From: Verrucomicrobiia bacterium
GTDB taxonomy: Bacteria > Omnitrophota > Omnitrophia > Omnitrophales > Aquincolibacteriaceae
Length of the DNA: 64,000 nucleotides
NCBI GenBank assembly: GCA_035495615.1
Contig: DATJFP010000092.1
Location: forward strand, 6,914 to 70,913
Reading direction: 5' to 3'
Shown: positions 27,189 through 62,500 of the stretch, one piece after another
Layout: every line of letters starts with the position of its first letter
Numbering within the stretch: the stretch's first letter is position 1
Position numbers and translations under genes: made by a program
The notes under the pieces: model-generated
Databases searched by the model: none
What the model saw: the letters and a program-made list of their open reading frames with translations, nothing else
What the model was told of the DNA's origin: nothing

Positions 27189-27192
27189 AAGC

Positions 27193-38764: not shown

Positions 38765-41632
38765 TCAAGAAGCCGGGTTTTTCTGCTTCAGGTAACGAAC
38801 GAGCTGCTTTTCGAAGGCTTTGAGGCCGCCTTCCAGGTCCCGGCCCAGATCCACGGTCATGGCCGGAAGCCCGCGGTCGGAAAGCGCCTGCGAGTCCCCC
38901 GTGGCCTGCGCCTTCTTCAGGTCGGAAAAGCTGAATTTCACGTGCGGGATCTTGGCATCGCGCGGATCCTGGAGCGTGAAAAACAGAAAGTTTCCCGTTT
39001 CCGGGCCGCCCTTGAAAAGCTGTCCGATGGAGTGAAGGTAGCGCGGACCGAAGCCCACGGTCACCGGCACTTTGAAGGCGTCGCGCAGCACGGCCTGGAT
39101 CCTCTCGAAATACGCCGTGGTCTTGGGCGAACGCATAACATAAGGAAGCAGCGCGAGGTAACGCCCCTCTTCCAGGCTGCGGAAAAAATCGTCGAAATCA
39201 ATGGGCTTGCGCGCCTTGACGAGATTTTCCGGGTCCACGATTTCCCCGTCCCGTTCCGATTCGGTTAAAAGACGCGTGGTAATGTCCTTGCTCTCTTTGA
39301 CGTTGGGCTCGTCAAAAGGGTTGACGCCCATCACCGCACTTGCAACGGCCGTGCTGATCTCCCACCGAAGAAATTCAGCGCCTAGAGACGTGCGGTCCGG
39401 CCAATCCATTTCAAGGACAGGGAAGCCGGCTTTTTTGAGTTCTTTGACCTGCGCGGCCAGGCGCTTGTTTTTTTCGCCGGCCAGTTTCAAGATAAGAAAC
39501 GAACGGTCCTTGCCGTAGACGTCTGTCTTGCCCGGGCGTTCGCCGTCGACGGGCAAAATCCCCTGGCCTTCCTTGCCCGTGCTTTCGGCCACCAGCTGTT
39601 CGAGCCAGGCGCCAAACGGCTTGAGCCGCGGTGAAGTCCATACCGTCAGCTTGCCCCGGCCTTCACGCGCCAGCGTTCCCAAAAGCGCCCCCAGATAAAA
39701 GGAAGCGTTCTTTCTCAGGTCTTTTTCGGATTCCGCGGACGCAAACAGCGTCTTCGCCTGTTTCAGCAGCTGCCGCACGGAAATCCCGAGAAGCGCGGCG
39801 GGCACGAGGCCGAAAAACGAAAGCGCGGAATAACGGCCGCCCACGTCCGTAGGATTGATGAACACCTTGCGGAAGCGCTTGTCGTAACCTTCCTGCTCGA
39901 GCCGCGACCCTTCGTCCGTGATGGCGATGAACTGATTTCCCGACAGCGAAAGCTTGTCCGGGTTCCCCGCGTACTGCTTGAGGACCTTCTCGTGAAAGTA
40001 CTGGTACTGCGACATGGTTTCCACCGTGGATCCGGATTTACTGGCCACGATGAAAAGCGTCTTCTGCAATTTCACTTTCCGCTCCACGGCCAGGAGGGCG
40101 CCGGGATCGGTGGTGTCGAGCACATGGAAGCGCATTTTCTTACCCCGGCCCAGACGCGGCACGATCAGACTCATGACTTCAGGCGCCAGGCTCGAGCCGC
40201 CCATGCCCAAAAGCACGAGGTCGTGATAATGTTCATTCCACACGTCGTCGGAAAGCTCGTCGAGTTCATAAAGGCGTCCCAGCATCCAGTCCGCGATGCG
40301 CAGCCATCCCATGCGGTTGTTGATCACCTGCTGGTGTTCTTTTTCGGTTTTCCACAGGGACGGGTCGGCTTTGAAGAAACGTTCCCGGAACGATTCCTTT
40401 TCCATGCGTTCGACCGGCACCTTGCGCGTCACGATTTCCGAAACCGTGGCCTTGAGGCGCGCCAGCGTCGTTTTCCCGCGAAAATGCTCGCAGGCCAGCT
40501 CCAGCGTTTTCATGAGCGAATCAAACGAGTTTTCGAACGCGATGAGGCCGTCGTGCTGCAGTTTCTGCCCGACCTCGTTGAGGTCCAGCCCCCATTCCTT
40601 GAGACGGTCCACGACTGCGGCGGCCTCTTCCACGTTTTCTTCGACGGCGCCGATCTTCACCTGGCCGTGATCGAGAAAAGCGGTGAACGTGGGCTCCGGC
40701 ATGGTGTTGACGGTTTCTTCCCCGATAAGCGGTTCCACGTAAAGCAGGTCCGGATATTTGGGATTTTTCACGCTCGTGCTGCCCCACAGGACTTTTTGCA
40801 CGTTGGCGCCGTTGGCCTTCAAGGTCTGGAAGCGTCCGCCCGCAAGCACCTTGCGGAATTCCTGGTAGATAATCTTGGAATTGGCGACGGCCGCCTTGCC
40901 CTTCAGGGATTCGAGATCCGCGCGTTCGTCCGCGTCGGATTCGCGCTCCTGGAGCTGGGCCAGGCGCACGTCGAGCAGCGAATCATAGCGGCTGACGAAA
41001 ACGCTGGCGACGGAATGAACCTTGGAAAGATCGGCTCCCTTGCGCAGGCGCTCTTCGAGGCCTTCCAGGTAAGCATTCAGGACGGAAAGATAATGCTCGA
41101 GAGAAAAGATCAGCGTCACGTTGACGTTGATGCCGCGGGCCGTAAGCTCGCGGAAGGCTGCGACGCCGGCGGTCGTCGCCGGGACCTTGATCATAACGTT
41201 CGGCCGGGCCACCCTGCCGAAAAGCCGGACGGCGTCTTCGACCGTGCGCTTTTCATCATGCGCGAGATCGGGACGGACTTCGAGGCTGACATAGCCGTGC
41301 TCGCCTTCAGACTCGGTGTGCACGCCCTTGAAAAGGTCGCAGGCCTCCTGGATGTCTTCGATCGTCAGCGCGTCGTAGATCTCGAGCGTGGACTGGCCTT
41401 TGCGGCTCAGGCGCTTGACGTCTTTGTCGTAACCGGCGCCCGGCGTGCCGATGGCCTTTTCGAAAATGCTGGGATTGGAGGTCACCCCGAGAAGCCCTGC
41501 GTCTTCGATCAGGGACTTCAGTTTTCCGGACGAAAGGAGCTGGCGGCTGATGAAATCAAGCCAGGGGCTCTGCCCTGCACGGGCGAGCTCGAAGGTCGAG
41601 GCATTGCCGGACGATGCGTTCGTAGTCTTCAT
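38765..41632 (-). CDS. bifunctional transaldolase / glucose-6-phosphate isomerase fusion
   Basis: N-terminal transaldolase segment (SPWLDFISR...GVTSNPSIFEKA) and C-terminal PGI segment (GGRYSALSFFGLVPAALLG, GSTVETMSQYQYF). The start was moved to the ATG at 41632, which is preceded by GGAGGA. Confidence 0.9.
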   Translation of the reverse strand: MKTTNASSGNASTFELARAGQSPWLDFISRQLLSSGKLKSLIEDAGLLGVTSNPSIFEKAIGTPGAGYDKDVKRLSRKGQSTLEIYDALTIEDIQEACDLFKGVHTESEGEHGYVSLEVRPDLAHDEKRTVEDAVRLFGRVARPNVMIKVPATTAGVAAFRELTARGINVNVTLIFSLEHYLSVLNAYLEGLEERLRKGADLSKVHSVASVFVSRYDSLLDVRLAQLQERESDADERADLESLKGKAAVANSKIIYQEFRKVLAGGRFQTLKANGANVQKVLWGSTSVKNPKYPDLLYVEPLIGEETVNTMPEPTFTAFLDHGQVKIGAVEENVEEAAAVVDRLKEWGLDLNEVGQKLQHDGLIAFENSFDSLMKTLELACEHFRGKTTLARLKATVSEIVTRKVPVERMEKESFRERFFKADPSLWKTEKEHQQVINNRMGWLRIADWMLGRLYELDELSDDVWNEHYHDLVLLGMGGSSLAPEVMSLIVPRLGRGKKMRFHVLDTTDPGALLAVERKVKLQKTLFIVASKSGSTVETMSQYQYFHEKVLKQYAGNPDKLSLSGNQFIAITDEGSRLEQEGYDKRFRKVFINPTDVGGRYSALSFFGLVPAALLGISVRQLLKQAKTLFASAESEKDLRKNASFYLGALLGTLAREGRGKLTVWTSPRLKPFGAWLEQLVAESTGKEGQGILPVDGERPGKTDVYGKDRSFLILKLAGEKNKRLAAQVKELKKAGFPVLEMDWPDRTSLGAEFLRWEISTAVASAVMGVNPFDEPNVKESKDITTRLLTESERDGEIVDPENLVKARKPIDFDDFFRSLEEGRYLALLPYVMRSPKTTAYFERIQAVLRDAFKVPVTVGFGPRYLHSIGQLFKGGPETGNFLFFTLQDPRDAKIPHVKFSFSDLKKAQATGDSQALSDRGLPAMTVDLGRDLEGGLKAFEKQLVRYLKQKNPAS

Positions 41633-41788
41633 TCCTAGAAAATCCTCCAACTTGGACTTTAACGATGATGGATGTGGCCGGGGATAAACCGGCGGAATAA
41701 CTGCCGGAATAATGCCATAAAATACCAAAAAAGGCGGGGAAATACCATCACAAGGTTAGAAAAAAAGGAAAAAAGGTGTGAATGAAAA

Positions 41789-43836: not shown

Positions 43837-44439
43837 ATGAAGAAAGCCATTCTTATTTCCTTATGCGTGCTGGCCGCCGGCCTTCCCCTTACCGGCTGCC
43901 GCAAAAAACCTCTCCAAGAGCAGCCTCCTGCCAAGCAGGAAGCCGCGACTCTCAAGCTATTAAAGAAGGCCGGCCTCGAGGTCTATCCGAAGAGCGAGAT
44001 CCTGGATCAGTCGCTGAAGAATCAGGAAACCGAAAAGCTCTATGGAGCGAACCCGGAGGCGAAAAGCGAAGTGACCGTAGCGCGGGTGTGGGCGGCGGTG
44101 GATGCGCCGGTCGAAGAAGTGCGGGCCTACTACGCGAAAACTCATCCCTATGTCCTGCGCGACGAGCATAAGACCGACGGCACCGAATTCATCCAGCTCT
44201 CTTCCGTGGAAAAGATCGCCTCAGCCATCACCGAAGGTGTGACCCCGATTACGCTGGTGGACATCCGCAAGAACAAACTGACCGCCGACGAACGCACGGG
44301 CTACGAAGGCGAGCTGAAGGCCTTGCAGGAAAAAAAGGGCCCGGATCTCGTCGACGAAAACAGGATCAAGGAACTGCAGCGGCTCCTTGCGGAAAAAACC
44401 ATCGTCAAGCTGAGCCTCCGCGCGGAAAAACCCTCCTAA
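43837..44439 (+). CDS. hypothetical lipoprotein (only plus-strand gene in window)
   Basis: Signal peptide and lipobox LISLCVLAAGLPLTGC. 200 aa. Followed by a strong terminator. Confidence 0.55.
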   Translation: MKKAILISLCVLAAGLPLTGCRKKPLQEQPPAKQEAATLKLLKKAGLEVYPKSEILDQSLKNQETEKLYGANPEAKSEVTVARVWAAVDAPVEEVRAYYAKTHPYVLRDEHKTDGTEFIQLSSVEKIASAITEGVTPITLVDIRKNKLTADERTGYEGELKALQEKKGPDLVDENRIKELQRLLAEKTIVKLSLRAEKPS

Positions 44440-44446
44440 AGGAAAC

Positions 44447-44523
44447 GGGGACACACCTGAAGGTATGTCCCCGTATCAAAAAAAACGTTTGGGGACAGGT
44501 CTTTAGACCTGTCCCCTTTTTTG
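44447..44523. terminator. bidirectional rho-independent terminator shared by lipoprotein gene (+) and giant gene (-)
   Basis: Two GC-rich hairpins: GGGGACACACC...GGTATGTCCCC (44447-44472) and GGGGACAGGTC-tttaga-CCTGTCCCC (44491-44516). The second is followed by T6 on the plus strand and by a T8 run on the minus strand after a 4-nt gap. Confidence 0.75.
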
Positions 44524-44551: not shown

Positions 44552-47500
44552 TTATGCCGAGGATTTGACCTGCATTTCCTCGAGCAAGGAATCGGTCAAC
44601 GAAGCGGCGACGGCTTCGGCGACCAGCATGCCGCGGTTACCGTTCGGAGCCTTGGCCGCGTCAAAGACGTACGGCGGAATTTCCTTCAGACCCAAGATGG
44701 ACAGGACGAGCGCGGTCTCGATCAGTTTACGGATGGCAAGATCGCGGTCCTTGGCTTCGGCCGCGGGATTGACGACAGCAAGACCGACGGCCAGTTTGCC
44801 GGCGTAGTCCGCGTTGACGGCCTGATACATGTCGGATTCGGCGCCCTGGACCATGATGGCCTGGTTGCCTTCGGCGGCGATCTCGGCATTGAGGTTGACC
44901 ATCGTGCCGAGCTGATCCACGTTCGTGGCAAACCGCACGGTCTGCGTTCCGTAGTAGGCGGCCAGCTGCGCCCAGCGCGCGTCGAACTGCACGCCGGCGA
45001 TGACCACTTGGTGGCGCCTGGCGAACATTTCGGTTTCGAGGGCCGGCATCGAGATCATCATGGCCTGCGCCGGGTGCACGCCGCCCATCGCGCCCTGGAC
45101 ATTCATCACCCAATCCGTGACGGTCAGGAGGCCGTCTTCCTTGGCCAGCGCTTCTTTGAGTTCCGCGCCCGTATGCTGCGTGGCCATACGGATGAGAAGC
45201 TCGATGTTTTCGCCGCGGCCCTGGAAGTAGTCGCGCGCGGCGGCGGACGTCTTCGGATCGTTCAGGATGCCTTCGATGTCGCCGAGCGTCGTCGAGTACG
45301 CGGCCAGTTCGTGCAGGACGTCGAACGCGTGAGAATTGTAGCCCAGCGTATCCAGCGAAGCGCGCAGCTGCGGGTTGGCGGCCAGGGCTTCGATCTTTGC
45401 ATGCAGTAAGGCGTGCGTCTTTTCGTGGTTCAGGAAGATCCGCAGGTGCTGGGCGCGGATCGTGCGGTCCAGGCTTGTGTCCACGAAGCGTTCGGGCGTC
45501 ACGACGATCTTGGTGCTGCCGTCTTCCATGTGGCGCGCATAACCCAGACGGCGGTTGTCCTGCGCGAGCAGCGTGTCTTCCGGGCGCTGCACGAAGAACA
45601 TATGGATGTTGTCGGGATTCGTGCCGCGCAGCATGGAGAGCACTTCCTCCGGCGATTCGAAGGCCGCCGCGAGGACGTTTTCGAGTTCGGCAGTCTGTTC
45701 CGGCGTGAGGCCGAGGTCCTGGCCCGCGAGTACGCCTTCGAACGGGGCTTCGCGCAGTTCCGACTTCGGCGCGGCCGGCGCCGTTTCACGCAGCTCGCCG
45801 CGGATTTTCTTGAGCGCCTGAACAAGCGTATCCCCTTCGAGGCCGGCAAGATTGTCCAGCCATGTTTTCAGCTGGCCGGGCAATTCTTCGATGCCGGAGA
45901 AGAACTGGTCGGCGCCCGCCTGGATCGCAATGCCGTCGTTCAGGATCCGGTCCACGAGGCCCTTCATGAATTTCACTTCTTCGATCGCCGGCATCTGCTG
46001 GCTCTTGTCCGCGATGCGGTTGTACATGATCGGGACGAGGAGCGCCATGACGCGGGCGATCAGCGCGTTGACGTCGGCGCGCTCCGGAGCGGACGCGTCG
46101 AGGCTGGCAAGCAGCTGGTCGAGCGACTCCAGCGCGCCGAGCAGCTCTTTCGCGGAACGGTTCTGGTCCTTGCGGCTCTGGATTTCGTCGATCGTCCAGC
46201 GCAGGCCGTTCACGAGATCGGCGCGGCTGTTCGAGAAATCCACTTTCGGCATGAATTCGGACAGCTCGCGGAGCGAAACAGGATCGGCCTTGGCCATGCG
46301 TTCGTCCATCCAGGACTTGGGCTTGAACTCGATGATGACATGCCGGCTTCCGACCTTGGTGATGAACTGGAAGGCCTGGCCCTGGCGCGCGAGGCCGTTG
46401 TACTTTTCACGCGTCTCCTTGACATTGTCGCCGTCATAGATCTGGTCTTGCGGGTAAGTCGCTTCGTCGTCCAGGCGCTTGTCGCCGATCGGCAGGAGCT
46501 GGTAGCGCGTTTCGCCAAGGCCCGTGCCCGCATAGCCGTAAGCGCCTTCGGCGAGCTGGTAGATACCGTCATAATCACGCAGCGTATCGCCCATCACGCT
46601 GGAAGGCAGGACATCGTAAGTTCCCCTCGCGCTCCTCGGATGGATATGATAGAAGCCGCCGAGCTGATTCTTGGCGTAAACTTCGACCTGGTTGTGCTTC
46701 AAGCCGGTGGTCAGGATAAAGCGCTCGCGGCCCGTGGACGGGTCGATCTGGGCGCTGATCGCGAATTCGTACGGCATCTTCTTCATCATTTCCAGCTCGT
46801 CGCGCGTGGGCTTGGCCGAAAGCTCGACCACATAACGGCCGTTCGCACCGAGATCGCGGTGCAGCGCGCGCGTGGCCGAGGCCTGCGCGAGGACGTCGTC
46901 GCGGTCGAGCGCGGCCGCGGCGGCTTCCGCTTCCGCCTTCTCCTGATGGAGTTCCATGTAGCGTTCCGACAGCTGCTGCATCTGAGACGGATCCATCGTA
47001 CGGGCCATCTCCGACAGCTGCTGCATTTCCTGATCGATTTCTTCGGGACGGTTCAGGATCTTGAGCTGTTTGGCCAGCTTCAGGCTGTCGTTCAGAACCT
47101 CGGCCAGCGAAACGGTTCCTTCCATGCCGAGGAACTTCACGTTGTAGGCGTGGACGCGAGGATTGACGCTGCCCGCTTCCCAGAGCGCGGCCATGGCCAG
47201 GATGCCGAGCTCCGTATCGTCGGAGCGCAGGAACTGGGCGATGAGGCCGAGCGCCCGCTGCAGGCGCGCATCCAGCTCGTCCTGCGTCGGAGGCGTGGGA
47301 GGAATTCCCGCGCCGGCCTTGCGTCCGTCATACTGCAGGGCGACGTCGATGATCTTGTCGAAGACCTTTCTCATGGTGCGGTTCTTGAACGCCACTTCAT
47401 CAACGGAATCATTCGGCGCGTAATCCTGCAGCTCTTTGGCCAGCGCCTTGAGCTCGGTGCCGTCCGCGTCGTAATCCGCGTCCGCGGCGAGTTTCTCAGC

Positions 47501-50500
47501 GTAGGACTTGGTCTTGTTTTCGTAAGCGGCCATCACCGAAGGCTTGGCCGCGTCCGCGCCGATCTTGCTGTTGAAGGCCTGGCGGCTCGTTTCGATCTGC
47601 TGGCCGACGCGGATGACTTCGTCCGGCGTGAGATTCAGGAAGCCCGTGATGTCGGAGATCGTCTTGGCCGTGCGCGCGATGTACATGACCTGCGCCGGCG
47701 TCAGATAGCGTTCCAGGTAGCGCATGGCCGCGCGCATCTGCTTCATCTGGCGCAGTTTGTTCAGCTTGCGCTCTTCCAGGTTCTGCGACTTGAGGAAGTT
47801 CTGGTAAACGTCCGAACGTTCGACCTTCGCGTCGAGCGCCGACACCTTCGGGTCGACACCCTGCGTCACTTCGCCTCTGAGGCGCGCCATGTAAGCGTTC
47901 AGCTGGTTCTGCAGTTCTTGTTCCTGCTGCTCGTCCAGCTTGTCAGTCTTCAATTCCTTGAGCTTCATTTCACGGTACAGCTGCTGCCACTGGAACCGCT
48001 TGACGTTCTTTTCTTCATCGCGGTACTGGTCCATGGCGTACGAGAAGATCGGGCCGTTCTCCATGCTGTCTTCGTCGTAGGAGCGGCCGCTCTGCTGGAT
48101 CTTGCGGATCAGGATCTGCACCGTGTACGCCTCGTTTTCGTCGAGCAGCGTGCGGTCGGCGGTGCTGTCCTTGCGCTTGCCGGTCGGATCGGTCGGATCG
48201 ACGTAAGCCTGCTCTTTGCGCTGCGTGCCAAGGCCCAGGTCGATCATGTGGGTGGATTCGTGTTCGAGCGCTTCTTCTTCGTAACCCGCGATCGAGAAGA
48301 TGTAACCGGACTTGCGGAACACATGTTCCTGGCCCTTGAACTTATCGGGACCGGAGACGACAGGAATGTTCTTGGTTTCGTCCGGACGCGTCGCGTTGGC
48401 CTGGCCGGTCGCCGACAGGAAGCCTTTTTCGCGCAGCCACTGCAGCGCGGCCTTGGGCACGGAGATTGAAATGACCGGGACGTCCGGCAGGCCGAAGATG
48501 TCCTGCCACACTTTCAGGAGCGGGTCGCTGCTCGCCATGCGGACGCTGACCTGGACGGGCCTGTCGGTGCCGGCCGCCTTTTTCAGGCCTTCCTTGTCGA
48601 TCTTGGGCTTGTCGTAATAGTTGTTGAGGCCTTCGAGCACGTAATCCAGGGCCTTCTCGTATTCCTCGGCCGAGCTTCCGTCTTTCATCATGTTGCTGAT
48701 CTCGAGCAGGTCAGCCTGCGATTCGCGCATGCGCTTGATCTTTTCGTAATAACGCACGACGTCCGCCTGGTCCAGCGGGCCTTTTTCGAACCGCTCCTGC
48801 AGGGTTTCCGCATTGATGCCTTTCACATAATCGTCTTTCAGGTCGTCGTCTTTTTCGCTGACGCGGTACTTCACTTTCAGCACCGAGGCCGCGGCCTGCG
48901 CCGACGCATCCGCCTGGACGGCCAGCCGCAGCAGGTTGAGGCCGACGAACTTGTAGCTGTCGTCGATCAGTTTGTCTTCCATCAGGAAGCTCTCGGCCAT
49001 GTCGAGGAGGACAAGGCTGAGACCCTTTTTCAGCGCCTTCACGTCATCCGCGGCTTCCTGCTTCGCCGTGGCATCCGCCGCCGCGGCGCCGCGCGCTTCG
49101 GCCTGCTTGATCGCGGCTTCGTAAATCGACTTGAGCTGGACCATCGCGAGCGGCTTCGTCAGATCGATGTTCAGGGCCGCAAAATCCAGGCCCGTGCGGT
49201 TCAGCAGCGCGCCGCCGTCCTGGCCCGCAAGCGCTTCCAGCACCTGGGTCGTGGTCAGCGCGCCGGTATCGATGCGGGTGCCGCGGGCCGCGAGGAGCGG
49301 CACGATAAGCGCCAGCTTGTCCCCTTGCTCGGCGAGAGCTCCGGTAAGGCCGATCTTCGGCGCGACGAGCGACAGGAACAGCATGCGTTCGAACAGCGTG
49401 AGGTCGTAACGGTCCATGATGCCCGTGACTTCCAGCAGGTTGTCCGGACGGCTCACGCCTTCGGCGAGAGCGTTCATCTTGTAGAGGATCTTGGCGATCT
49501 CTTCCAGCTTCAGCTTGAGGATCGGCCAATGCCCGCGGATAGCGACGGTGAAAATGTCCCAGACGCCGCGCGGCACGAAGGCGAGATCAGGATCGAAGCG
49601 CACGAGGAGATCCGGAATGCTGCCCAGGTCCGGCGCCGTGGTCTTGTCGTCCAGCTGCTGGTGCTTGGCGGCCAGGAACGGCTGGTCGATCGCAAAGAGA
49701 TTGCCCGGCCGCAGGTTGTCTTCGAAATACGCCGCTTCGATCTCGCGGCGGCTCTTGCCCGTGCGCTTCTGCGTGTTTTCGACGTAGGCATTCAGGCGGA
49801 AGTGGTCGTAACGGCGCGCCGTGCGGATCTGGTTGTCCAGGGCCTGGCCCGTCTTGATCTGCAGGTCGTCCTGGTCGAGCAGCTTGCCGAGGCGCGCGTA
49901 CGCGTCCTGCTGCAGCTTCATCAGGACTTCGAGATTATTCTCGTCAAATCCTTTTTCTTTGTTCAGACCCAGGCTCTTGGCCGCATCCAGCGCGCGTTTC
50001 TTGTCGCGGTTCACGTCCTTCTCGGAGACGTACGGCGACGGCTTGCCGAGCGCCTTCGCCTGTTCGATTTCCCGCTGGATCTTGGGATCTTTGTAGTCCA
50101 CGGCGCTCTTCTGCAGCGCCACCAGCGTGTCGAGCGCCTGCTTCGCGCGGACCGCGTTGAGAAGGTCGACGAGCGCCTCTTCGACCGCTTCGACGCGGGC
50201 GTGGTCGCCGGCGGCCGTGGCCGCGTCATGTTCGGCGCGCAGCTTCATCATTTTGAGGTCGAACGCCGTTTCCTGGCTCGGTTCCTGGAAGCCTTCGGCG
50301 CCGGCCTTGTAGAGGTCGGACCAGGCCTGGTCGATCTCGTTACGCGTGAGCGGCGAGAACAGGCGTCCGAAGAAGCTGGTCTTGCGGTCCAGCGCCTCGG
50401 CCTTGTTCAGGAGGTACTCGCGCACTTCTTTTTCCGTGCGCTGGCTCTGTTCGACGAGCGTCTGCACGGCCTTTTCCTGGCGGACCAGGTAGTACAGCGC

Positions 50501-53500
50501 GTCGAGCGACAGGTCGACGAGCGCGTCCATGCCATAGCCCGCGACGGCGCGGCGCAGGTCGTCCCGGAAGTTCAGCGATTCGTCCTGGGCCAGGAGGTCG
50601 ACCACCGACAGGAACAGGTTGTGCTGATACGCATCGACCTGGCCGGGCGTGGCGCCCCGCAGGAACGCGGGCTTGAGTTCGTGAATGTCGGAGAGCTTGA
50701 AGCCCTTCAGCGTGGCGCGCAGGCTTTCGAGGGCTTTCTGCTGCTGGCGTTCGTACTTGGCCTTGGCCTTCTCGAGGCTCGCCTTTTCGCGGTCGATTTC
50801 TTCGCCGGTCGCCGTGGCAAAACCGCGCTCGGACTTGCGCAGCGCGATCTTCTGCAGCTCGATCTCCGCGGACCGCAGGCTGTCGCGCTGCTGGGACAGG
50901 CGCGTGTAGAGCTGACGGACAGGCTTGGGCATGTCGGAACGGGCGTTCTTCAGGGCGATCTGCGCGATGCGGCCGGCCGGGCTCAGTTCGCCGTAGCCGT
51001 CGCCGTAGATGTCGAAGAGGAGCTTCGAGTCCACTTTGCTTTCGATTTCTTCGCCGGTCAGACCGACGTTCTCGAGATGGCGGACCACGTTGAGCAGCTG
51101 GTTCAGGCCGCGGCGGTCGTAGCTGGTGAAGTCAACGAAGCCGCGGTCGGAAAGTTCCAGCGCGATGCGGTAAAGTTCGCGGTCATCTCCGTCGTCCCAG
51201 TGGAAGCCGAGCTTGCGCAGGCTGTTCTTCTGATAGTCGGACAGGTTCTGCAGGTCTTCGATGGTCCGCGTGAACGCCTGGCCTTTACGGGTCAATTCGT
51301 AATGACTCTGCTCGACCGTCTCGCCGTTCCTGACGTCGGTAACCTCGCGTTTCTGCTCGCTGACAAGGCCGCGGCTCTCCAGGTTTTCAGCCACGGCTTT
51401 CGCGGCTTCGGCCTGGTTGTTGCCCAGATGCGCGATCGCGCGGTTGGCGTCGGCCAGGTTCGCGGACTTCACTTTGATTTCCTGATGACGTTCCACGGCT
51501 TCGGCATTGATGACCATCTTCTCCAGGTTCTTGGCCAGGCGGACCGTATCCACCAGGTTGTTGGTCGTGGACAGGCTTTCCTTTTCGACGCGCAGGCCCG
51601 GCGCGACGCTTTCTCCGATATTCAGGTCGCGGAGGATCTGGATGCCGCGGTCGCTGAACCGGACCGAGCACGAGGAGCACGATTCGCTGAGCTCGACCAG
51701 CAGGCCGCGCAGTTCGGTCTTCGACACGTCGGCAAGCAGGGCTTTCAGCGCCGGGTTCTGCTCGGCGAGGAGCGCCAGCGTGCGGAACGTGCTTTCCGAA
51801 CGCGCCACATTGTCTTCGTGACTGGCCAGGACGTCGCGCTGCTGGCCCTTGATGATCTGCTCGAGAAGCGCCTTCAGGGCCGATTCCGCGGTGGCCGGCG
51901 AATTAAGGGCGGACTCGGAATTCGCGAACAGGTTCTTGATCTGGCCTTCGAGCGCGACTTTGTTCGCGTCCACCGTCGAGCCGAACAGCAGCTCCTTCTT
52001 GGCCGCGTCGATTTCCGCGAGGAAGCCCTTGATCATGTCCATCGGATCATCGCTGTTCTTGGCGAAGTCGTGGATGTCGGTTTCCATGGCGTTCAGGTCC
52101 ATCGCCTCATTATTCAGCGCCAGCATGTTGCGGTAGCCGGCGAGGTAGGCCTCGCGCATGGAGTTGAGTTCGCCCAGGACGCGCGACTGCATCTGCTCGC
52201 CGCCGGTCAGGTATCCCTTTTCCTGGAAGTCGAAGTTCACGTCGTCGTCCTGCGCCTCGCGGTTCTGCCAGTCGGTATAGAAATCGTTGATCGCCTGGTG
52301 GACCTTGGCTTTGGCCTTGTAATCCTCGCTGAACTGGAAGCCGTGCTCTTCCATGCGCTGCAGTTCGGCCAGCGCGCTCTTGAGCTCGACGCGCCATGCG
52401 GTCACCATCCGGCGGGCCTCGTCACCCCGGGCCGTATTGTCGCGGCCGGCCAGGCTCGAGTAGTTCTGGATGTTCTTGGAGAGCTCCTTGATGTCCTCGA
52501 CCAGCTGCTTCTGCCGGTCTTCGAACGCCTTCCGCTCCTGTTTTTCCATCTGGGCGAGCTCGCCCTTCAAGCCGTTCAGCATGGACTGCGCGATTTCGTG
52601 GCCGCGGTCTTTCAGCGTTTCGCCGACCTTGTGCAGCAGCGAGCCGGACACGTCGTTCTTGATGTAGTTCCACGCCGACACCATCATGAACCATTCGATC
52701 TCGGTCAAAGTGTCCTTCATTTCGAGGCGCTCGATCAGGTTCAGCGTCAGGCGGAATTCGTTTTCTTTCATTTCTTCCTGGTACTTTTTCAGCGTGATCT
52801 TGCCGCGGTTCAGATCCTTCAGGAGGCCGGCCTCGAACTGGGCCAGGACTTCCTGCATGGCGCCCTTGAAGCTGTTGTTGCGCTCGTGGATGTCCATCTC
52901 GATCGAATTGCGGATGGCCTGGAAATCCTTGGTCGGGAGCAGCACCTGGCGATGGCCGATTTCACCCTTGCCGCGGACGATGCGGCCGAGGATCTGCATC
53001 ATTTCGCGGAAGCCGCGGCTCGCGGACTTGATGGTCAGCGACCACTTGCCCTGGAAGTCGACGCCCTGCTGCGTGTCCTGGATGTTGTTGGTGACGACGA
53101 GCGACGGCGTGCCCAGCGACGCGGCCACGCGCGCGACCGTCGGGATGAGTTCGCTGAAGGCCACGGCGTCGACCGCGAACATGTAGCTCTTGTTTTTGTC
53201 GGTCAGCTTCGGAAGCGCTTCGAGCTCCTGCTGGTCCTTCTGCGTGGCCTCGAGGATCATGTCCGTCTTCTTCTTGAGGTTGTCCTGAATTTCCTGGTAA
53301 CGCTGGCTGCTCCACACGTTGTCGCCCAGCTGCCGTTCGAGCTGCGTGGCCTCTTTCTGGAGGCGTTCGAACAGGCCGATGACCGACTTGACGTTCTTGC
53401 CCACATCGACTTCGATATACGTGCGGCCGCCGTTGTCCTTTTCCGCCTTGAAGCTTTCGAGGACCTTCGAATACTCCGTGTGGTCTTCCACGAACATCAG

Positions 53501-56500
53501 ATGGGCCCAGCCCTTCTCGAGGTATGCCCGGCCGATTTCCAGCATCTTGGCCACGCCGTTTTCTTCGTCGACGAACATGAGGTTCTTGGCGTTGGCCCTG
53601 CCGATCTCGTCGTTCTTCTTCGTGGCTTCCGCGGCTTCGGATTTCGCGATGAGCTGCTTCACGTCATTGGCCGTGATGTCTTCGGCATAGGTCCAGGCCG
53701 CGCTGATGACATTGCCTTCGTTGTCGCGCTCCTCGCCCTGCTGCATGCGCGAACGGTCGCGCGCCACGGTGTGCACGCCCATCAGGATGGACGACAGCGG
53801 GCTGTAAGTCGCGGTGCTGCCCGCGCGGCGGATGTGGCGGCGCAGGAGCAGCTCGCCTTCCGCGGTCTGGGTCACGGTGATGTGGTTGTTGAGGTTCAGG
53901 ATGCCCTGGTTCTTCCCGTTGTTTTCCTGCGGGATGTCGCTCATGCGGATAAGGTCGCGGCCGTAGCGGCCTTCGACGACCAGGTATTCCGCGCCATTGA
54001 TCTGCACGCGCTCCAGCGTCACGTTCGACGCCGTGTTGGTGATTTCCGCGTGCGCGCCCACCTGGACTTCCGTACGGCCGGTGATGTCGGCGATCTCGAT
54101 CCGCGTGACGTTCTTATTCGCCTTGTCGATGATGCGCTTGATCAAGCTCATCTGCGTGGAGGTCGCCTGCGTCAGCGAATTCTCGAGCTCGTGCTCCTTG
54201 ACCATCTTGTCGTTGACTTCGGCCAGCTCGCCGCGAAGGACGTTGATTTCGCGGATGCGCGCCTGGATGTCGTCGCGCTGCGCGGCATCCGCGGTGGTGA
54301 GCAGCTGCTTCTCGAGGTTCTCTTTCTCGGTTTCGATTTCCGCGAGGTTGCGGCCCTGGATCTTCTCCAGACGAGCTTCCTTTTCCTTGATCTTGTCCGC
54401 GTTCGCAGCCGCGTCGGTCTTCAGTTTTTCCAGGTCGCCCTTGAGCGCCGTAACTTCATCCGTAAGCTTCGCGGCCTTCTTCGCCAGCACCTCGTTGCTG
54501 ATGAACGACAGGACGAGCTTCGTCACGCGGCCGCTGAAATTCGTGGACTGGATCTTACCGTTCTCTTTCGGGTGCAGCTCGCCGTATTCGTTCGTTTCGA
54601 AGTGCTTGGCATACTGCATGCCGAGCGCGCGGACCGCTTCCTTGACTTCTGAGGCCCGGAATTCGCCGGACACGATGCGCTCTTTCACGCGCTCCTTCAG
54701 GGCCTTGGACATGTACACTTCCGCGTCCTTGTCGGTGCCTTCGACGATCAGCTGCGCGTTTCCGAATTTGTCCGCGATGTCGAGCAGCCGCTTGGCCTCG
54801 CGGTTGTCTTTGGCGACCAGAAGCGCGTTCTTGTTGGCAATGCCGTTTTCGTCGTAGGTCACGCCGAGCATCGTATACAGCTCGCGGATCTTGTTGATGT
54901 ATTCCTCGGCGTTTACGGTCGCGTTCTTCGTGTCGGACAGGATGTACTGCGTGATTTCCGCCTGGAACTTATCGATTTCTTCGATGCCCCACGAATCCAG
55001 TTTCGCCATCAGGAGCTCGAGGATCGCGGGCTGGTCCTGGAGGGTAATCAGCGCGAAACCGACCTGGTCCGGGGCGATGACCTTGATGGCCTCGTCGTTT
55101 CTGAGCGCCGCTTCCAGCTTTTCGAAATCGCGCGCGACCAGGAGCTTCTGGATGTCGATCAGTTCGCCCGCGCCGAAGAGCCGGACCAGTTCCTGGTTCG
55201 GGACGCTGACGCGGAGGTCGTTCGGGCCTTTGATGCCGGCTTTGCCGTTGGCGAAGTCCGCGCCCTTGGTTTCGGTTTCCGCCAGGATCACGCTGCCCGA
55301 GACTTCGCTGTTCTGCCGCGCGAGCGCGATTTCCGTGGACGCCTTGACCATGGCCACCATGTTCTTACCGACGGCGGTCTTACCATTGCCGATTTCTTCC
55401 ATCAGGAAGTCGCCGATGATGCCCTTCTGCACGGCGCGCAGGTCGAAGCGGTAAGCGCTGTCCGCGCGGACCTTATCCGCCGCGGCCTGGGCTTCTCTGG
55501 CGGCCTGATCCTTGTCGTGCGTCCGGCCTTCGACTTCTTCGTACGTCTTGCGGTAAGTCTCGCGCATGAATTCGATCAGCAGCCGGTGTCCGAAAATCTT
55601 GTTGTGATAAACCAGCAGGGATTCGCGGTCGAGCTTGTAACCGTCACCCAGGCGCGCCTTGACGCCTTCGACAAAGGCCTTGTACACCGCGGCGCCGTCG
55701 ATCGTGCCGTTCTTGAAGTAGTCCTGCAGCAGCCGGCCCGCCTGGCCCGCGGTCAATTCCATTTCGGCCTGGAGGTCGAAGATGCCGTACTTGATGTCCT
55801 GGGCGACGTTCGGATTGGCGCCCGTGAATTCCGCAATGGCTTTGTCCGCATACGCGTGCAGCTGCGCGCGCTGATCGGCGTCCAGGCTGTTGTTGGCGAG
55901 CGCCCTCGAAAGCACGGTCAGCGTGGCTGTATCGTTGCGCAGGCTCGACGGCATGCTGAAGGCGACATCGACGATGGCCTGCAGCGCGGCGAGATCCTTC
56001 GTTTCATAGGCTTCCTTGCGCAGGGCCGAGAGCTCGCCCTTTTCGAGCTGCTCGATCTGGTCTTCGAGCTGCTCTTCTTTCATCGAGAGCGACGGATCGC
56101 GCAGGCGCATCGGCATGCCGCGCACGACCGCGAGCTGGCTGCGGAGATCTTCCATCTTCACGAGCGCTTCCTGGAAACGGAAGGCCAGGCTGCCCGCGGC
56201 GGGCGCCGTCTTGAGCGGGCTTGCGGTCGGGGCCTGAGCGCTCTGGAATTCTTCGAGCGCCGCGGCGCGCGCAGGTTCCGGGGCCTTGGCCGCTTTCTTC
56301 GCTTCGGCCGCTTCTTTGGCGGTCGGCGTGGCCTTGGCGCTTTCGGCCGGGGCCTTGGCGGCTTCCCGGGCGGCCGCGGCTTCAGTGCGCGTGGCTTCCA
56401 GGCGGCCGAGGCGGGCCTGTTCCGAGATCTCGAAGCGCATCAGCATGGCTTCGCCGGCGAGCTCGGCGCGGCTCAGCTCGATCTGGCGGAGCGCCATGAA

Positions 56501-59500
56501 CAGGTCCTGCGCCGTGGCGTTGGCCAGCGTGATTTCCGTGCCGTCGCGCGCCTTCAGGTTTTCGAGCGCCGCCATCAGGCCGTGCGCGATCATCATGCGC
56601 TGCGCCCGGACCCGCGCGGAAACGCCGGCCGGCACCAGGATGTTGAAGAGCGGATGGCCGCGGAAGCTGTTGAAACCGAACGGCATGAATCCGAACATTC
56701 CGAGCGCGGCCGTCTGGTACGGCACGTCGCCCTGCACGTAATTGCCGAGGAATGCGAAGGCGTCGTTGAACGGTACGCCGTGGAAGGTGCCGAGCGCGGC
56801 CAGGGCCGCGACGATGCCGATGAAGCCGAGGCTGACGACAGCCGCGGCGCGCGCGAACTTCGCCAGCGGCGAGCGCGAGGCGCGGACCGGCGTTCCGAGA
56901 ACGTCGGCCAGGTCTTCGACCATGTCTTTATACTGCGTTTCGTTCAGTGAGCGGCCGTCCGCCGACAGGTTCAGGCGCTGTTCGACGTCGGCGACCGCAT
57001 CCAGGATCCGGTCCTTGGTCTGGCGTGTCGTTTCGAGCTGGCTGGCCAGGACTTTCAGAGTCGCCTGGTGCTGCGCGATCTGGCTGAGGAGCGACGAGCT
57101 CAGGAAGCGCGCGTTGACCGTGCCGAGAAGCGCCTGGATCTGATCGACGTACACCTGCGCGTTCGCGACGTCCATGCGGTTCAGCGCGGCGATGAGCGCC
57201 GACATCAGGAGATCGATATTGAGGACCATGAGCGAGTGCGTCTGTTCCTGCGCCCACGGATTGGCGGCATTCGTCTGAAGGGCCTGGATGCGCTGGCCGA
57301 GGTCCTGCAGGTCCTGGCGGAACTTCGCCAGCCGCGCGATGCCTTCCTGCGTATTCATCTTGTTCGCTTCGATCGCTTTTTTCAGGCCCGCGTATTCGGT
57401 CCTGTAACCGTCGAGCTTGGTGAGGACATCAAATTCTTCGGTGGCGCGCGTCTGGGCATCGGCCTGCGTGGCGTAGGTTTCAACCGTGATGCCGTTGATC
57501 GTGACCGCGTAGATCGAGCCGCCGTTGGAGAGCTGACGTTCTTCGACCACGACCGCGTCGCGGCCGAGCGTCTGTTTGGAAACTTCTTTGGAAGAGACCG
57601 TCACGGGGGCGGCCGGCGCCGAGGTGCCTGACAGCGCGGGCGCGGCCTGGGCTTCGAGCTGGGCCTGGCGCGCGGCGGCGAGATCGGTCTGGGCCTGGTG
57701 CAGTTCCTGTTGCGCATCCGCATAGGCTTTTTCCGCGGCGATGACTTCAGGCGATTTCACTTTCGCTTCGGCCTGCGCTTCCGTGCGCGCCTGGACCTGC
57801 GCCACGGCATTTTCCGCGACGCTCGGGGCTTTGGCGCCCTGCTCCACGGCCATGACCAGGCGGAGCGAGCGGCCCACGAGATACGCCGCGAAGATCTGGA
57901 TGCCGAGAACAGCCGGCAATCCGATCGGCGCCAGCACGGTGAGGCCGAGAACCGGCGCGGCCACCATGAGGACGGCGGAGGTGAATCCGCCGAGGACGCC
58001 TGCGGCCCACGGGCCGATGACGGCCGACACCATCCGGCCGATGAACGACGTAGGCTCGGCGCTCATCTTGCCGAAGAGCAGCGTGCCGATGCGTTCCATC
58101 CAGGCGCCGAAGACTTGGCCCGTGGTCGGGGCCGAAGACGCGGCGACGCGTTCCGCTTCGCGGATCGTCTGGGGCGCGGCGGCTTCTTCGGCCTGCGGTC
58201 CGGCGCGCGTCTGCGCGTTCGCACGGATCGCGGCGATGACTTTCACGGCCCAGATGAAGAGCGAGACGCCGCCCAGGATCGCGGCCTGGATCGCGGGCGC
58301 GAACGGGAGAATCGCCGCAACCACGCCGAAGCCGGTGGCGGCCAGAGCAATCGCGGTGCCCCAGATGATCGTATTCGTCCAGAGGTTGAAGCGCTTGGTC
58401 TGCGCGTTATTCTTGTTTTCCAGGTCGATGTTGGCGCCGAAGCGGTTGAGAAGCGCCGCGAGCGGAGCCTTCACCCAGGAAACCGAGGTCTTGAGAATGA
58501 AGGCCGAAAGGACCGTGATGACGCCCGGGATGCCGAAGACCGCCAGGAGGCCGCTCACGAACAGGTAACCCAGGCCGCCGACCAGGCCGACCGTGAGCAG
58601 CTGCGCCGTGATGTCCTTGAGAACGCCGAAGAAGCCTTTTTCTTCGGCTGCCTGTTTATTGAGGCCGAGGGTGGACTCGGAGAAGATCAGCGCGAACAGG
58701 CCCGGCAGCACGAGATTGATAAGGGCTCCGATCACCGGCGCCTTCTCGACCACCTTGAAGACGAACCATTCCTGGACCGCGTGCATGCGCTTGGCAAAGC
58801 GGCCGAAGGAGGTCGCCTCGCCTTTCTGCGCGAGGATCTGTTCCTGGATCACTTCGGCCACGGCCTCGAGGACTTCCAGGATGTTGAAGCCGTCGGCGTT
58901 CATCACCTGCTCGGCCACCTTCTGGAGCAGCTCGAGCAGCTTGGTCCGGTCGGCGCCGATCTGCGCGGCCAGGAAGTCGATCACCGCGCGGACGACGGCC
59001 AGCACGCGCAGCTTCGTCTGCTTGGCCTGGATGTCCATGGCCTTCTGGTAGTCCGCGCTCGAAATGCCGAGCAGGCCGTGCGTGTATTTCAGGATGAAGG
59101 ACGCGATGCGGCCCACGATCGAGGACAGGAACTGCACCAGAATCGAGCGCGAGTTCGTGGCCGGCGTCATGAGGTAATTCAGGAGGCGCAGGATCGCGTT
59201 CTGCAGCCAGCCGAGCAGGCCGTTTTCGGACTTGAGCAGCTCGCTCTTTTCCTGCGCCATGTCTTCGGTCGCCTGGTTGACCGCGTCCATGACGTCCTGC
59301 GCCGAAGCGTTCTGGTCGATCGTGATGCCGAGTTCCTGGGCCACGGCACGGGTCGCGCCGTCCGCGACTTCCTGCGCCGTGACGTCCGGCTGGCTGGCGA
59401 TGAGTTCCGAAATCGTCTGGAGGATCTTGCCCGCCGCCTTCTTCTCGTCTTTCAGGTTTTCAGAATCCTGGAGCGCCACGTTCTTGAACGCTTCCGTGAC

Positions 59501-62500
59501 CTTGTCGGTGCGCTGCTCGCTCGCAGCCTGTTCCGCCGCCGTCTTCGGCAGCTCGGTCCGGGCCGGCGCGTTCAGCTTGCCGCCGTTCAGCACGGTCTCG
59601 ATGGCGTCTTCCACGCGGCCCAGCGAATTTTCCAGCGCGCGGACTTCCGGCGTGGTCTCGGCGTACTGGGCGATCATGCCTTTCAGGCCGGCTTCATCCA
59701 CGTGTCCGGCGTCGATGAGGTCGGTCAGCCGCGCCGCTTCCTGCACCGAGATCTGGCCGCCGCTGCGGGCTTCTTTGACAAGGTCTCTGAGGAACGCGAT
59801 GCTGCGCAGCGATTCCTTTTGCTTCTCGCTCATCGGGGCCTGCTCGACGGCCTTGGCGCGGGCTTCCTCGATCTTCTTCTGGGCTTCTTCAAAGGACTTC
59901 ATCGCGCCCTGAGCCGTGGCATTGGCGGCCGCGAGCCTCTTCTCGGCTTCGGCCAGCCGCAGCTGCGCCTGAGTCTGGGCTTCGGCCAGGCGCGCCTTTT
60001 CCTTCTCGCCGTAACCGGCTTCGGCCTTGTCCGCATCGGAAATCGGAGCGGCGGCTTCTTCCAGCGCTTTTTCCGCGGCATAGCGGCTCTCGAGCGCGGC
60101 CTGGAGGTCGGCCTCGGCCTTTTGCACCTGGATCAGCGCGGCGGCCTTGGCATCCGCGTCGCCGATCGCGAGTTTTTCCTGGGCCTGACGCAGGGCCTCG
60201 CGCGCCGTTTCTTCCGCGGTCTTCGCTTCCTGCACGCGGTTGACCAGGCCTGCGCGGGCTTCGACTTTTTCCGCTTCCTTGGCCTTGGCTTCCGCGTCGG
60301 CCTTGGCTTTTTCGGCCTGGGCCCGCAGCGTGTAGGCTTCCTGCGCGGCCGCGAGCATCTGATAGTACGGCGTATTCTGGACTTCGAAATCAAGGCCCGC
60401 GAGCTCGAGCTTCGACAGCGCCTTCAGGAGCGCCACGCGGCGTCCTTCGGTCATCTGGCCGAAGCGGACCAGGTCGCCCAGCATCGCCGCCGCCTCGTCT
60501 TCGGTGTTCAGGTTGTGATGGGACAATTCGTGGCTGAGCGCGAAATCGAGGATCGCCATGATTTCGCGCGCGCTGAGCTTGGTCGTGCGCAGCAGGTCCG
60601 CATTGAAAGAGAACGTCGCCGTCGTGTTGTCGGCGCTCAGCGCGACGCCCGCGACCTGCGTGGTTTCTTTGAGGAGCCGGATCTGGACCTTCTGGAGGTC
60701 CGGCTGCATGCGCTGGGCCGCGAGAAGTTCCGTGGCGATCAGCCGCACGAGGCGTTCCTGCAGGACGCGGTAAGTGTCGTTGTCGATGCCCGCAAACAGC
60801 ACGCCGAAGACTCCGGCCAGTTCGGCGCGGAGGATTTCCCAGAGTTCCGCCTGGCTCTTCGCGGCTGAGGCAAGCTGCACGTCGATCGAGATCAGGCCGT
60901 TTTCGATCGTCACCAGCTGCGCGTTCTCGACCGAGGTCATGGAGTCGCCCAGCAGGTTCTGGCCTTCGAAGGTGCGCGCGCCCTTCGCGGCAGCCTTCAT
61001 GCTGATCGGGAACGCGGCCATGCCGTGATGACCGCCGGTTCCGTCCACGGCCTGGCGGAAGAAGTCCGCGATCTTGGCGATAACGGCTTTCTGACCGTCA
61101 TCCATTTCCCCGGTGAAGAAGATATCCTTCAAGCTGTCTTCCACGGCTTTCTGCGCGGCCGCCTGCTCTTCCTGCCTCAGTTTCTGCTGCTCGGCGGCGC
61201 TTTTCTTCATGTCATCGATCATCTGACGGATGCCGACCACGTTCTGCGTGAACGGAGCCGTGTCGGAGATCATGTCCCCGATCATGCCCTGGGCTTCCGC
61301 GCGGGCCTCAGCCTCGAGTTCGTCCGTGATTTCCGCGGCTTCGCTCATCTGCTGCAGGAGCACCTGGGCGAGTTCGGCTTCGAGCGCGGCGATGGTTTCA
61401 GCGCGCTGCTGCTGATGCGCTTTCGCCTGCTCGGCCGTGATCGTCACCGTGACGCGGCCGGACTTGATCTCGACCTGGCCGTTACGGATCGCTTCCTGCA
61501 GGGTCTCGTTCGACGCTTCCGTCAGGAGGCGCGCGGCCAGTTCTTTCTTGAAGGTTTCGATGCGGGCCGCGGTTTCCGCCTGGCGGGCCCGGGCTTCGAG
61601 GATCCGGTTCTCGGCTTCCAGGACCGCGCCGCGGTATTCCGCCTTGTGCGCTTCGTCCATGGCCGCGTAGCGCTGGAGATTGGCTGCGACGGCACGGACC
61701 GCGTCTTCCACGTTCGCGCCGGCGGCCGCGCGGTCGAGCGAAAGGATGAAGATGTCGATTTCAGCCTGCGTCATTTCCGAGAGATCCTGCAGCAGCTCGA
61801 CGCGTTCGTTGACGTCCATGCCGTGGGCTTCGGCCAGCGCGTCCACGAACCGCTGCGCCGCGGCCTTGCGGGACTCGCTCGCTTTGGCCACGACCGCCTG
61901 TCCGGCGCTCGCGACGCGTTCCTTGTTTTCCTGGGCCAGCGCCGCGGCTTTGAGTCGCGCTTCGTGCTCGGCCTTGACCTGCGCCAGCCGCTGGGCGCGC
62001 TGGTCGACGGCGGCCTGATGCGCCTGCTGGGCCTGGGCCGCGCGCGTGGCGTAAGCCGCGCTGCGCGCCGTGAGGTCCGCGACCGTGGCTTCGAGCGTCT
62101 GGATCTGCAGCGTGAACTGCGCGGCTTCGGAATTGCGGTCGGCCTGCAGCTTGCGGACCTTGTTTTCAAGATCCTCCTGTTCCTTGCTGAGCGACTGCAG
62201 GGCTTCTCCGCTCATGAAGCGCTGCATGCGTTCGAGCTTGTCGGCTTCCGTCATATTGATAAGGGCCTGAAGCTCCGCTTGCGCGGCCGCGATCTGCTTG
62301 TCCAGGTTCTCGAGCCGGGTCTGCTGAGCGGCACGCGCCTGGACAAGCTCATTCTGGGCGCTGGTCAGCGCGTTGGCAAACGTCAGGTTTTCACGCTGCG
62401 CGCGGAGCGCCGTGAGATCGCTCTGTATCTGGCGGATCTCGTCACGGTTTTCGAGGGCCGCCGCATAATCGGCCTGCAGGGTCGCAAGCTGCGATTCCAG

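Follow-up and report, generated by a model that had tools for sequence, protein, structure and literature searches.

Giant bacterial proteins resist annotation almost completely, and it is still an open question by which route they are inserted or exported. They are most common in Omnitrophota and comprise numerous transmembrane regions, and in most of them there are divergent domains of the SecA DEAD helicase and preprotein-binding types, which are often located just after the transmembrane anchors and for which a role in the export of the giant protein itself was proposed (West-Roberts et al., bioRxiv 10.1101/2023.11.21.568195). Among long Omnitrophota proteins, a PF07517 (SecA DEAD-like) architecture group was also described (2026 preprint, 10.64898/2026.06.07.730766). 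So far, such self-carried divergent SecA-like domains are known from cases that can be detected with Pfam. The DNA analysed here, a stretch of 64,000 nucleotides from contig DATJFP010000092.1 of assembly GCA_035495615.1 (positions 6,914 to 70,913; in the following termed the window), originates from an uncultured bacterium of the Planctomycetes-Verrucomicrobia-Chlamydiae (PVC) group and encodes a giant membrane protein. This protein probably contains a SecA-type ATPase module of helicase superfamily 2 (SF2), which would be a case of a SecA-type motor that is entirely overlooked by sequence searches with Pfam, NCBIfam and the PDB.

The module fits the known kind of giant transmembrane proteins in which divergent SecA domains are embedded. 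Like the giant proteins of Omnitrophota and Actinobacteriota, the protein is very large, comprises many transmembrane helices followed by a SecA-related module and can hardly be annotated in its remaining parts, and its host appears to be related to the PVC group and Omnitrophota. While those modules were identified as Pfam SecA_DEAD or preprotein-binding domains, the present family reaches no Pfam SecA model, and it further differs by an EE.D Walker B motif in most members, a Gln in motif V in all of them and, in the window protein, a GKN in the P-loop. Compared to the examples of 30-85 thousand amino acids (aa), the protein is smaller, and the dockerin, peptidase C39 and glycosyltransferase domains reported there were not found in it by a Pfam scan.

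The giant open reading frame (44552..63982, minus strand, as are all parts of the giant gene mentioned below) codes for 6,476 aa from the first start codon in the window, and the frame is open to the window edge (64000). The N-terminus of the product thus lies outside the window, and the protein is longer than 6,476 aa. On a Logan contig, which is also cut, the same gene was called with at least 7,575 residues, and the full protein is probably longer than that. The coding status is backed by protein-level homologs, and the plus strand shows stop codons throughout at the coordinates of the motifs. Its composition is dominated by Ala, Leu, Glu and Gln, and Cys occurs just twice in 6,476 aa. By Kyte-Doolittle scans, a transmembrane-like cluster of about 9-10 hydrophobic segments was located at 56783..59146 (aa ~1613-2400). 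The last of these segments ends about 430 aa ahead of the ATPase module, which starts at aa ~2835. Since no transmembrane-like segment was detected by the same scan after aa 2400, the C-terminal part of about 4,000 aa should share one side of the membrane.

The whole module was delimited to aa 2835-3850 (52433..55480) by alignment, AlphaFold, Foldseek and hhalign. It consists of a first nucleotide-binding domain (NBD1), a large insert, a second nucleotide-binding domain (NBD2) and trailing long helices, and the motifs appear in the order Q, Walker A, Ia, Ib, Walker B, insert and III, followed in NBD2 by IV, V and VI and by the long helices. The membership in SF2 is solid, and it is very likely that the module comprises two RecA-like domains with the motif assignments given in the following.

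At the start of NBD1, a Q-motif-like AVQK (D[VI]QK in the homologs) was assigned to 55424..55435 by alignment and hhalign. The distance from its Gln to the Lys of Walker A is 21 residues, which is the same as in E. coli SecA (Q87 to K108). Walker A (motif I) was determined by alignment as GKTAVGKN (aa 2867-2874, 55361..55384). In this copy the Lys is kept and the usual Thr/Ser is replaced by Asn, so that the pattern G/AxxxxGK[ST] is missed; searches for [AG]xxxxGK[ST], strict or loose, resulted in 0 matches in the whole giant protein. The motif Ia-like ILAET (55274..55288) and the motif Ib-like QVGF (55055..55066), which was aligned to the E.GFDYL region of SecA, were both supported by alignment and hhalign. 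For Walker B (motif II) with its tail, IEEIDKFQAEITQYILSD (54932..54985) was determined by alignment and by hhalign against SecA. It includes IEEID at aa 3000, in which the Glu at the catalytic position is retained and the first Asp is changed to Glu.

According to alignment and AlphaFold, an insert of about 370-385 aa (53822..54931) occupies the gap between motifs II and III, which in SecA is the position of the preprotein cross-linking domain (PPXD). An alpha/beta part, a beta-rich part and long helical hairpins can be distinguished in it, and for one stretch (54521..54655) the best local hhalign match was the PPXD core of SecA (residues 307-344), with a weak P of ~0.1. Altogether, the spacing of motifs II and III amounts to 388 aa compared to 182 aa in SecA and 31 aa in RhlE. 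Directly after the insert, the motif III-like GSTATYSP (53798..53821; family pattern G[STA][ST]AT[YFW].P), aligning to MTGTA of SecA and SAT of DEAD-box proteins, shows the highest conservation of all blocks in the family.

NBD2 (52853..53605), which is the RecA-like domain on the C-terminal side, was defined by the AlphaFold domain model and Foldseek and is essentially the segment that a preliminary description of the window had placed at 52900-53650 and tentatively interpreted as an embedded ATP-driven motor. The four strings quoted there are present in the minus-strand translation of the giant open reading frame at aa 3468-3676. Two of them, LMFVDEENG (aa 3468-3476, 53555..53581) and HLMFVEDHTEY (aa 3494-3504, 53471..53503), had been regarded as DExH-like boxes. 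A function as motif II is ruled out by the alignment and the domain model: their acidic residues are not conserved, and both are beta-strands of NBD2, LMFVDEENG being the first strand and HLMFVEDHTEY a motif IV-like strand with its helix, for which the best hhalign match was SecA 423-456. Both boxes are chance matches, and the true Walker B lies about 465 aa upstream. The strings proposed as motif V, VVTNNIQDTQQGVDFQG (aa 3629-3645, 53048-53098), and as motif VI, QILGRIVRGKGEIG (aa 3663-3676, 52955-52996), were correctly assigned. By alignment, motif V corresponds to LVVTNNIQDTQQGVDFQG (53048..53101) and motif VI to QILGRIVRGKGEIGHRQ (52946..52996), which aligns to QLRGRSGRQGDAGSSRF (570-586) of SecA in the alignment and by hhalign, and the structural positions of both motifs fit.

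That no Walker A could be found upstream agrees with the negative pattern search; the motif nonetheless exists. It was missed since it lies about 600 aa upstream, outside the range considered, and since GKN breaks the strict GK[ST] pattern. The module is in fact three times larger than the segment described. Thus, the preliminary observation is partly confirmed, being real and partly mis-assigned, and the interpretation as an embedded motor of the SecA/helicase type is partly supported: a helicase/SecA-type SF2 module is present by fold and homology, whereas the attribute ATP-driven is doubtful for this copy in view of GKN, EE.D and the Gln in motif V. The comparison with SecA turned out to be apt. 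Self-BLAST of the 6,476 aa gave no indication that the segment is a repeated module, and this candidate was rejected. The sole internal repeat detected lies in the coiled-coil-like N-terminal part, where aa 1-263 resemble aa 523-783 with 36% identity (E=5e-13; window 61634-63982, minus strand).

Further elements of this region are a long helical hairpin of 60 residues within NBD2 (aa ~3529-3588, 53219..53398; helices 105-164 in the domain model) and the helices after NBD2 (52433..52933; AlphaFold model), one of which comprises about 85 residues. The latter possibly represent a scaffold-like element in the model, and hhalign of these helices against SecA yielded nothing. Considered within this single protein, the motifs appear individually weak. 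Both Q..GR..R and hhhhDE occur once in 6,476 aa, with a chance expectation for Q..GR..R of about 0.08 as a rough estimate from the protein composition.

An exhaustive HMMER search over 1.84 billion cluster representatives resulted in 9 homologs with 25-37% identity, and only about ten sequences of the family were found among 1.8 billion representatives. The homologs are very large proteins, complete or in fragments, of up to 5,488 aa, and are annotated as hypothetical or with unrelated names. Among the long homologs, HTL47951.1 (P0003) is closest to the giant protein; it originates from another metagenome-assembled genome (MAG) labelled as Verrucomicrobiae. With the motif signature and a DNA pattern derived for the family, a compact tool is now available that retrieves further members; the DNA pattern matches the window, L002 and L003, and 3 metagenome loci were retrieved. 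No relative was found in a scan of genome contigs with the single segment, no match was observed in viral contigs with either the family alignment or the DNA pattern, and a search of phage DNA was likewise without match.

Motifs V and VI belong to a block in which 16 columns are invariant in 7 members. The consensus of motif V is TNN..QG[VI]DF.G with invariant N, QG, DF and G, and that of motif VI is Q..GRI.R...G.R with invariant Q, G, R, I, R, G and R. In all members, motif V shows a Gln where SecA has Arg509. The upstream motifs are conserved as well, in the form of D[VI]QK, TA.GK[T/N], AET, Q.GF, I[ED]E[IV]DK....T.YI..D and G[STA][ST]AT[YFW].P. Among the seven sequences covering the P-loop, the canonical GKT was determined in five (P0001, P0002, P0006, P0008 and L015) and GKN in two, namely the window protein and P0003. 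The Asp of Walker B is Glu in most members, and IDE[IV]D was observed in P0006 and P0008. The Walker A Lys, motifs V and VI and both arginines of motif VI are conserved, whereas the two quoted boxes are not. In LMFVDEENG, the acidic pair DE varies to KD, ED, AE, AK and KI and only the hydrophobic strand is conserved, and in HLMFVEDHTEY, ED.H varies to Q-S, D-D, P-N and GV, with the hydrophobic strand and the following helix being conserved.

For the module (aa 2835-3850, 1,016 aa), an AlphaFold2 model based on a 10-sequence alignment was obtained with a mean predicted local distance difference test (pLDDT) score of 72.8. The models show two tandem RecA-like alpha/beta domains, and their Foldseek matches were mostly SecA and SF2 helicases. 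In a Foldseek comparison of the full module with the PDB, the top match was SecA of T. thermophilus (2ipc) with a prob of 0.99 over 974 aligned columns. SecA and SecA2 from B. subtilis, M. tuberculosis, T. maritima and E. coli came next, and SecA/SecA2 structures occupied the ranks 1, 2, 11, 12, 14, 21, 23, 32 and 38, while the SF2 helicases Mfd, Brr2, MTR4, WRN, RecQL4, UvrB and RIG-I appeared among the later matches. The domain model of the segment described previously (aa 3425-3710) reached a pLDDT of 82.2 and a predicted template modelling score of 0.81, and it matched almost only C-terminal RecA-like domains of SF2 proteins. These include DDX3 (prob 1.00, TM-score 0.57 normalised to the target), UvrB (prob 0.97-0.98), PolQ-helicase, Hel308, DDX21, domain 2 of YxiN and the C-terminal domain of DDX6. 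In this model, the two quoted boxes are the first two beta-strands, and motifs V and VI are found in the expected places.

At the level of profiles, hhalign was applied with a 10-sequence SecA/SecA2 profile from annotated records and a five-paralog E. coli DEAD-box profile as references, while UvrB, Rep and Rho were used as single sequences. For each segment of the family, the best local match was the cognate SecA motif, in co-linear order: the Q motif and Walker A matched SecA 80-116 (P 0.001), Walker B with TPLIISG matched 196-232 (P 0.29), motif III matched 377-412 (P 0.28), and, besides the PPXD core mentioned above, motif IV matched 425-447 and motif VI matched 566-592 (both P ~0.1). Reversed-sequence controls resulted in matches elsewhere, not at the cognate motifs. 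In column shuffles, NBD1 showed z=7.4 against SecA and z=7.3 against the DEAD-box profile, and motifs V-VI showed z=4.5 against UvrB, and for none of these comparisons was the real score reached by any of the 100 shuffles. Rep, a member of superfamily 1 (SF1), matched with the P-loop alone and Rho not at all, and an SF1-like or Rho-like module was accordingly rejected.

Compared to SecA (E. coli, T. thermophilus 2ipc and SecA2), the module thus shares two RecA-like domains, the order of the motifs Q, I, Ia, Ib, II, III, IV, V and VI, the Q-to-Lys distance, a big insert between motifs II and III, the tails of Walker B and motif VI and long helices after NBD2, and SecA is its best full-length structural match in the PDB. 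In contrast to SecA, the insert has about double the length and shows no more than a faint PPXD signal, no Pfam SecA model matches, Walker B is EE.D, Arg509 is replaced by Gln and this copy carries GKN. Moreover, SecA is a free protein of about 900 aa, whereas the module is located mid-chain in a membrane protein of more than 6,476 aa and not beside Sec genes. Altogether, the architecture, i.e. the insert, the tails, the faint PPXD signal and the full-length structural ranking, leads us to assign the module to the SecA type, an assignment we consider somewhat better than an even choice.

A number of results weigh against this assignment and have to be set beside it. Searches of the whole giant protein with Pfam, PHROGs and NCBIfam gave nothing relevant, and for the segment no helicase, SecA or P-loop family was obtained from these collections even at E<=10. 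No SecA or helicase model of Pfam matched any family member at E<=10 (SecA_DEAD (PF07517), SecA_PP_bind and SecA_SW included), apart from the best value of E=0.12 for Helicase_C_2 with one member, and neither phmmer nor the family profile found anything relevant among PDB sequences. The profile check for P-loop NTPases, a negative outcome of which the preliminary description had named as refuting its interpretation, was therefore formally negative for Pfam, NCBIfam and PDB sequence profiles, and homology became apparent only in the profile-profile comparison and in the structure. The structural data have their own weaknesses: the Foldseek E-values of the full module are marginal (best 1.6e-3, none <=1e-3), the global TM-scores are low (0.2-0.36), the alignments behind the models are shallow with 8-10 sequences, and the Q/P-loop region was modelled at a pLDDT of <50. 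At the sequence level, SecA is no better than the DEAD-box profile, which matches in an equally co-linear manner (Q/I/Ia, II, III and V-VI), motifs V-VI show only z=1.6 against SecA, and the PPXD match is weak. In a library of predicted viral structures, the best full-length matches were not SecA but DUF3638 proteins of Klosneuvirinae (E 3e-5 to 4e-4). Finally, the complete homologs P0006 (aa 1-200) and L015 (2885-3800, plus strand) begin with signal-peptide-like N-termini, and hydrophobicity scans detected no transmembrane segment ahead of the module in either of them, which would place the ATPase outside the cytoplasm unless weaker segments were missed.

Several of these points would also be expected for a generic SF2 helicase or translocase of the DEAD-box, UvrB or DUF3638-like kind that acts on RNA or DNA and resembles SecA merely by the SF2 core and an unrelated insertion. 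Besides the equal score of the DEAD-box profile, the top of the list for the NBD2 model (DDX3, UvrB, PolQ and Hel308, not SecA), UvrB as best sequence match of motifs V-VI and the full-length viral matches to DUF3638 proteins and SNF2/DEAD helicases support this explanation. However, SecA ranks first in the full-length PDB comparison over about 1,000 aligned columns, and the position of the insert after motif II and before motif III is that of SecA, while DEAD-box proteins have no such insert and the insert of UvrB sits between Ia and II. Details such as T.YI.SD compared to TPLIISG, Q.GF compared to FGFDYL and the tail G.RY of motif VI compared to GSSRFY are SecA-like as well, and the module is part of a polytopic membrane protein whose lineage is one with documented SecA-like domains in giant proteins. 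The similarity to DEAD-box helicases (RhlE, DeaD, RhlB, SrmB and DbpA) and to UvrB comprises the co-linear profile matches and the fold of NBD2, in contrast to the spacing of motifs II and III, the missing match to Pfam DEAD or Helicase_C, the missing Arg of motif V and the membrane-protein context. Taken together, we consider a generic nucleic-acid helicase rather improbable. Even less can be said for chance matches of motifs in a long helix-rich, low-complexity protein without any NTPase domain. The sequence searches without match, the two DExH-like boxes, which are truly chance matches, and the composition rich in Ala, Leu, Glu and Gln would agree with it, but it is refuted by the conservation of motifs V and VI and seven upstream motifs in homologs of 25-37% identity, by confident alpha/beta models matching SF2 and SecA structures and by hhalign scores that shuffled controls never reached, so that it can be regarded as highly improbable.

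A different question is whether a module of SecA-type descent still hydrolyses ATP in this protein or serves as a structural or binding scaffold. The Asn in the P-loop, the EE.D of Walker B and the Gln in motif V make catalysis by this copy doubtful, which likewise counts against an active SecA-type motor. A change of Ser/Thr to Asn in the P-loop is the classical alteration that causes defective binding of nucleotide and Mg in small GTPases, and GKN is present in the window protein and in P0003; the changes in Walker B and at the position of SecA R509 extend to most and to all members, respectively. On the other hand, all remaining motif features are strictly kept in this copy, among them the Lys of Walker A, the Glu of Walker B, motif III and the two arginines of motif VI, and with GKT in five sequences the family as a whole retains the canonical P-loop. 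A slow or regulatory ATPase, or a pseudo-ATPase, has to be taken seriously as an alternative, although a degenerate pseudo-ATPase appears rather unlikely to us. The natural contrast of GKT and GKN makes the requirement for ATPase activity directly testable.

If the module is of the SecA type, the following mechanism could be envisaged. The transmembrane cluster would tether the module to the membrane, and the pair of RecA-like domains, controlled by nucleotide, would move the inserted clamp-like domain on a polypeptide in a SecA-like manner. The module might act on partner proteins or, in cis, on the giant protein, and the ATP turnover by this copy may be slow or may have given way to nucleotide or clamp binding. 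A function as polypeptide-translocation motor can only tentatively be proposed. Going further, the proteins might represent an unrecognised SecA-derived motor family, i.e. a membrane-tethered, cis-acting motor for the self-export or assembly of giant envelope proteins in the PVC group, with the GKN sub-lineage (the window protein and HTL47951.1) as a clamp that is locked in one nucleotide state or a pseudo-ATPase; we regard this wider picture as speculative and, in its entirety, doubtful. Since the module is invisible to standard searches, the trait may be wider than reported so far and may include MAGs labelled as Verrucomicrobiae.

The viral matches to DUF3638 (PF12340) showed a prob of 0.93-0.99 over about 1,000-1,200 aligned columns, and proteins annotated as 'ubiquitinyl hydrolase 1' were also among them. 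Based on the models, this family might be linked structurally with both SecA and DUF3638. The likeness is structural only; no family member matched the Pfam model of DUF3638 at E<=10, and those proteins are eukaryotic-viral. In the literature found, a function of DUF3638 was not described, and literature on this domain is essentially absent.

Outside the module, a second long conserved region of the giant protein (aa 4877-5912; window 46244-49351, minus strand) is shared with P0002 (29% over ~1,100 aa) and P0003, which indicates that the family has more in common than the ATPase module. Neither a domain match nor a PDB sequence match was obtained for it, and phmmer searches of PDB sequences with the flanking parts of the giant protein (2,063 aa and 2,834 aa) yielded nothing. 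Compared to the rest of the window (GC 0.53-0.61), the giant gene showed an increased GC of 0.61-0.67 and a strongly negative AT skew, which may result from the Ala-rich composition rather than from a foreign origin.

The homologs allow some further observations. P0006 and L015 share an N-terminal domain with the pattern ..I[IN]I[RQ]D.H....AQ..I....L......[VL]..VEG..G..D....FPD... after the signal-like sequence. P0006 and P0008 comprise transmembrane segments downstream of the module, unlike the window protein. The gene of P0006 (5,488 aa, complete) is located on L003 (JGI 3300077993, Ga0643557_001060, 1-28992) between a giant gene of at least 4,040 aa and a membrane protein of 698 or more aa. 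Accordingly, several very large genes are arranged in tandem at this locus.

The neighbours of the giant gene in the window are ordinary chromosomal genes, namely a transaldolase/phosphoglucose isomerase (Tal/PGI) fusion, a histidine kinase, a response regulator, RecN, MiaB, CinA, two PilB and PilC. RecN of the window is 100% identical to a protein encoded on a 99-kb contig of a MAG labelled as Verrucomicrobiae, and the next-best named relatives with 45-54% identity all belong to Candidatus Omnitrophota. Scans of the window for tRNA and Rfam families yielded nothing. The two PilB genes are arranged in tandem and code for T2SSE ATPases that both contain an MshEN domain; they are followed by the PilC-type T2SSF gene (25959-30662, minus strand). 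The fused transaldolase/phosphoglucose isomerase gene (38765-41728, minus strand) codes for 987 aa in the window, and the gene call on a JGI contig comprises 955 aa. Convergent with the giant gene, an open reading frame of 200 aa (43837-44439, plus strand) without Pfam match was observed, and a gene was called at the same position of the Logan contig. Just downstream of the stop codon of the giant gene, two strong GC-rich hairpins with stems of 11-13 bp are located at 44445-44516, of which the one at 44491-44516, between the giant gene and the convergent reading frame, is terminator-like on both strands.

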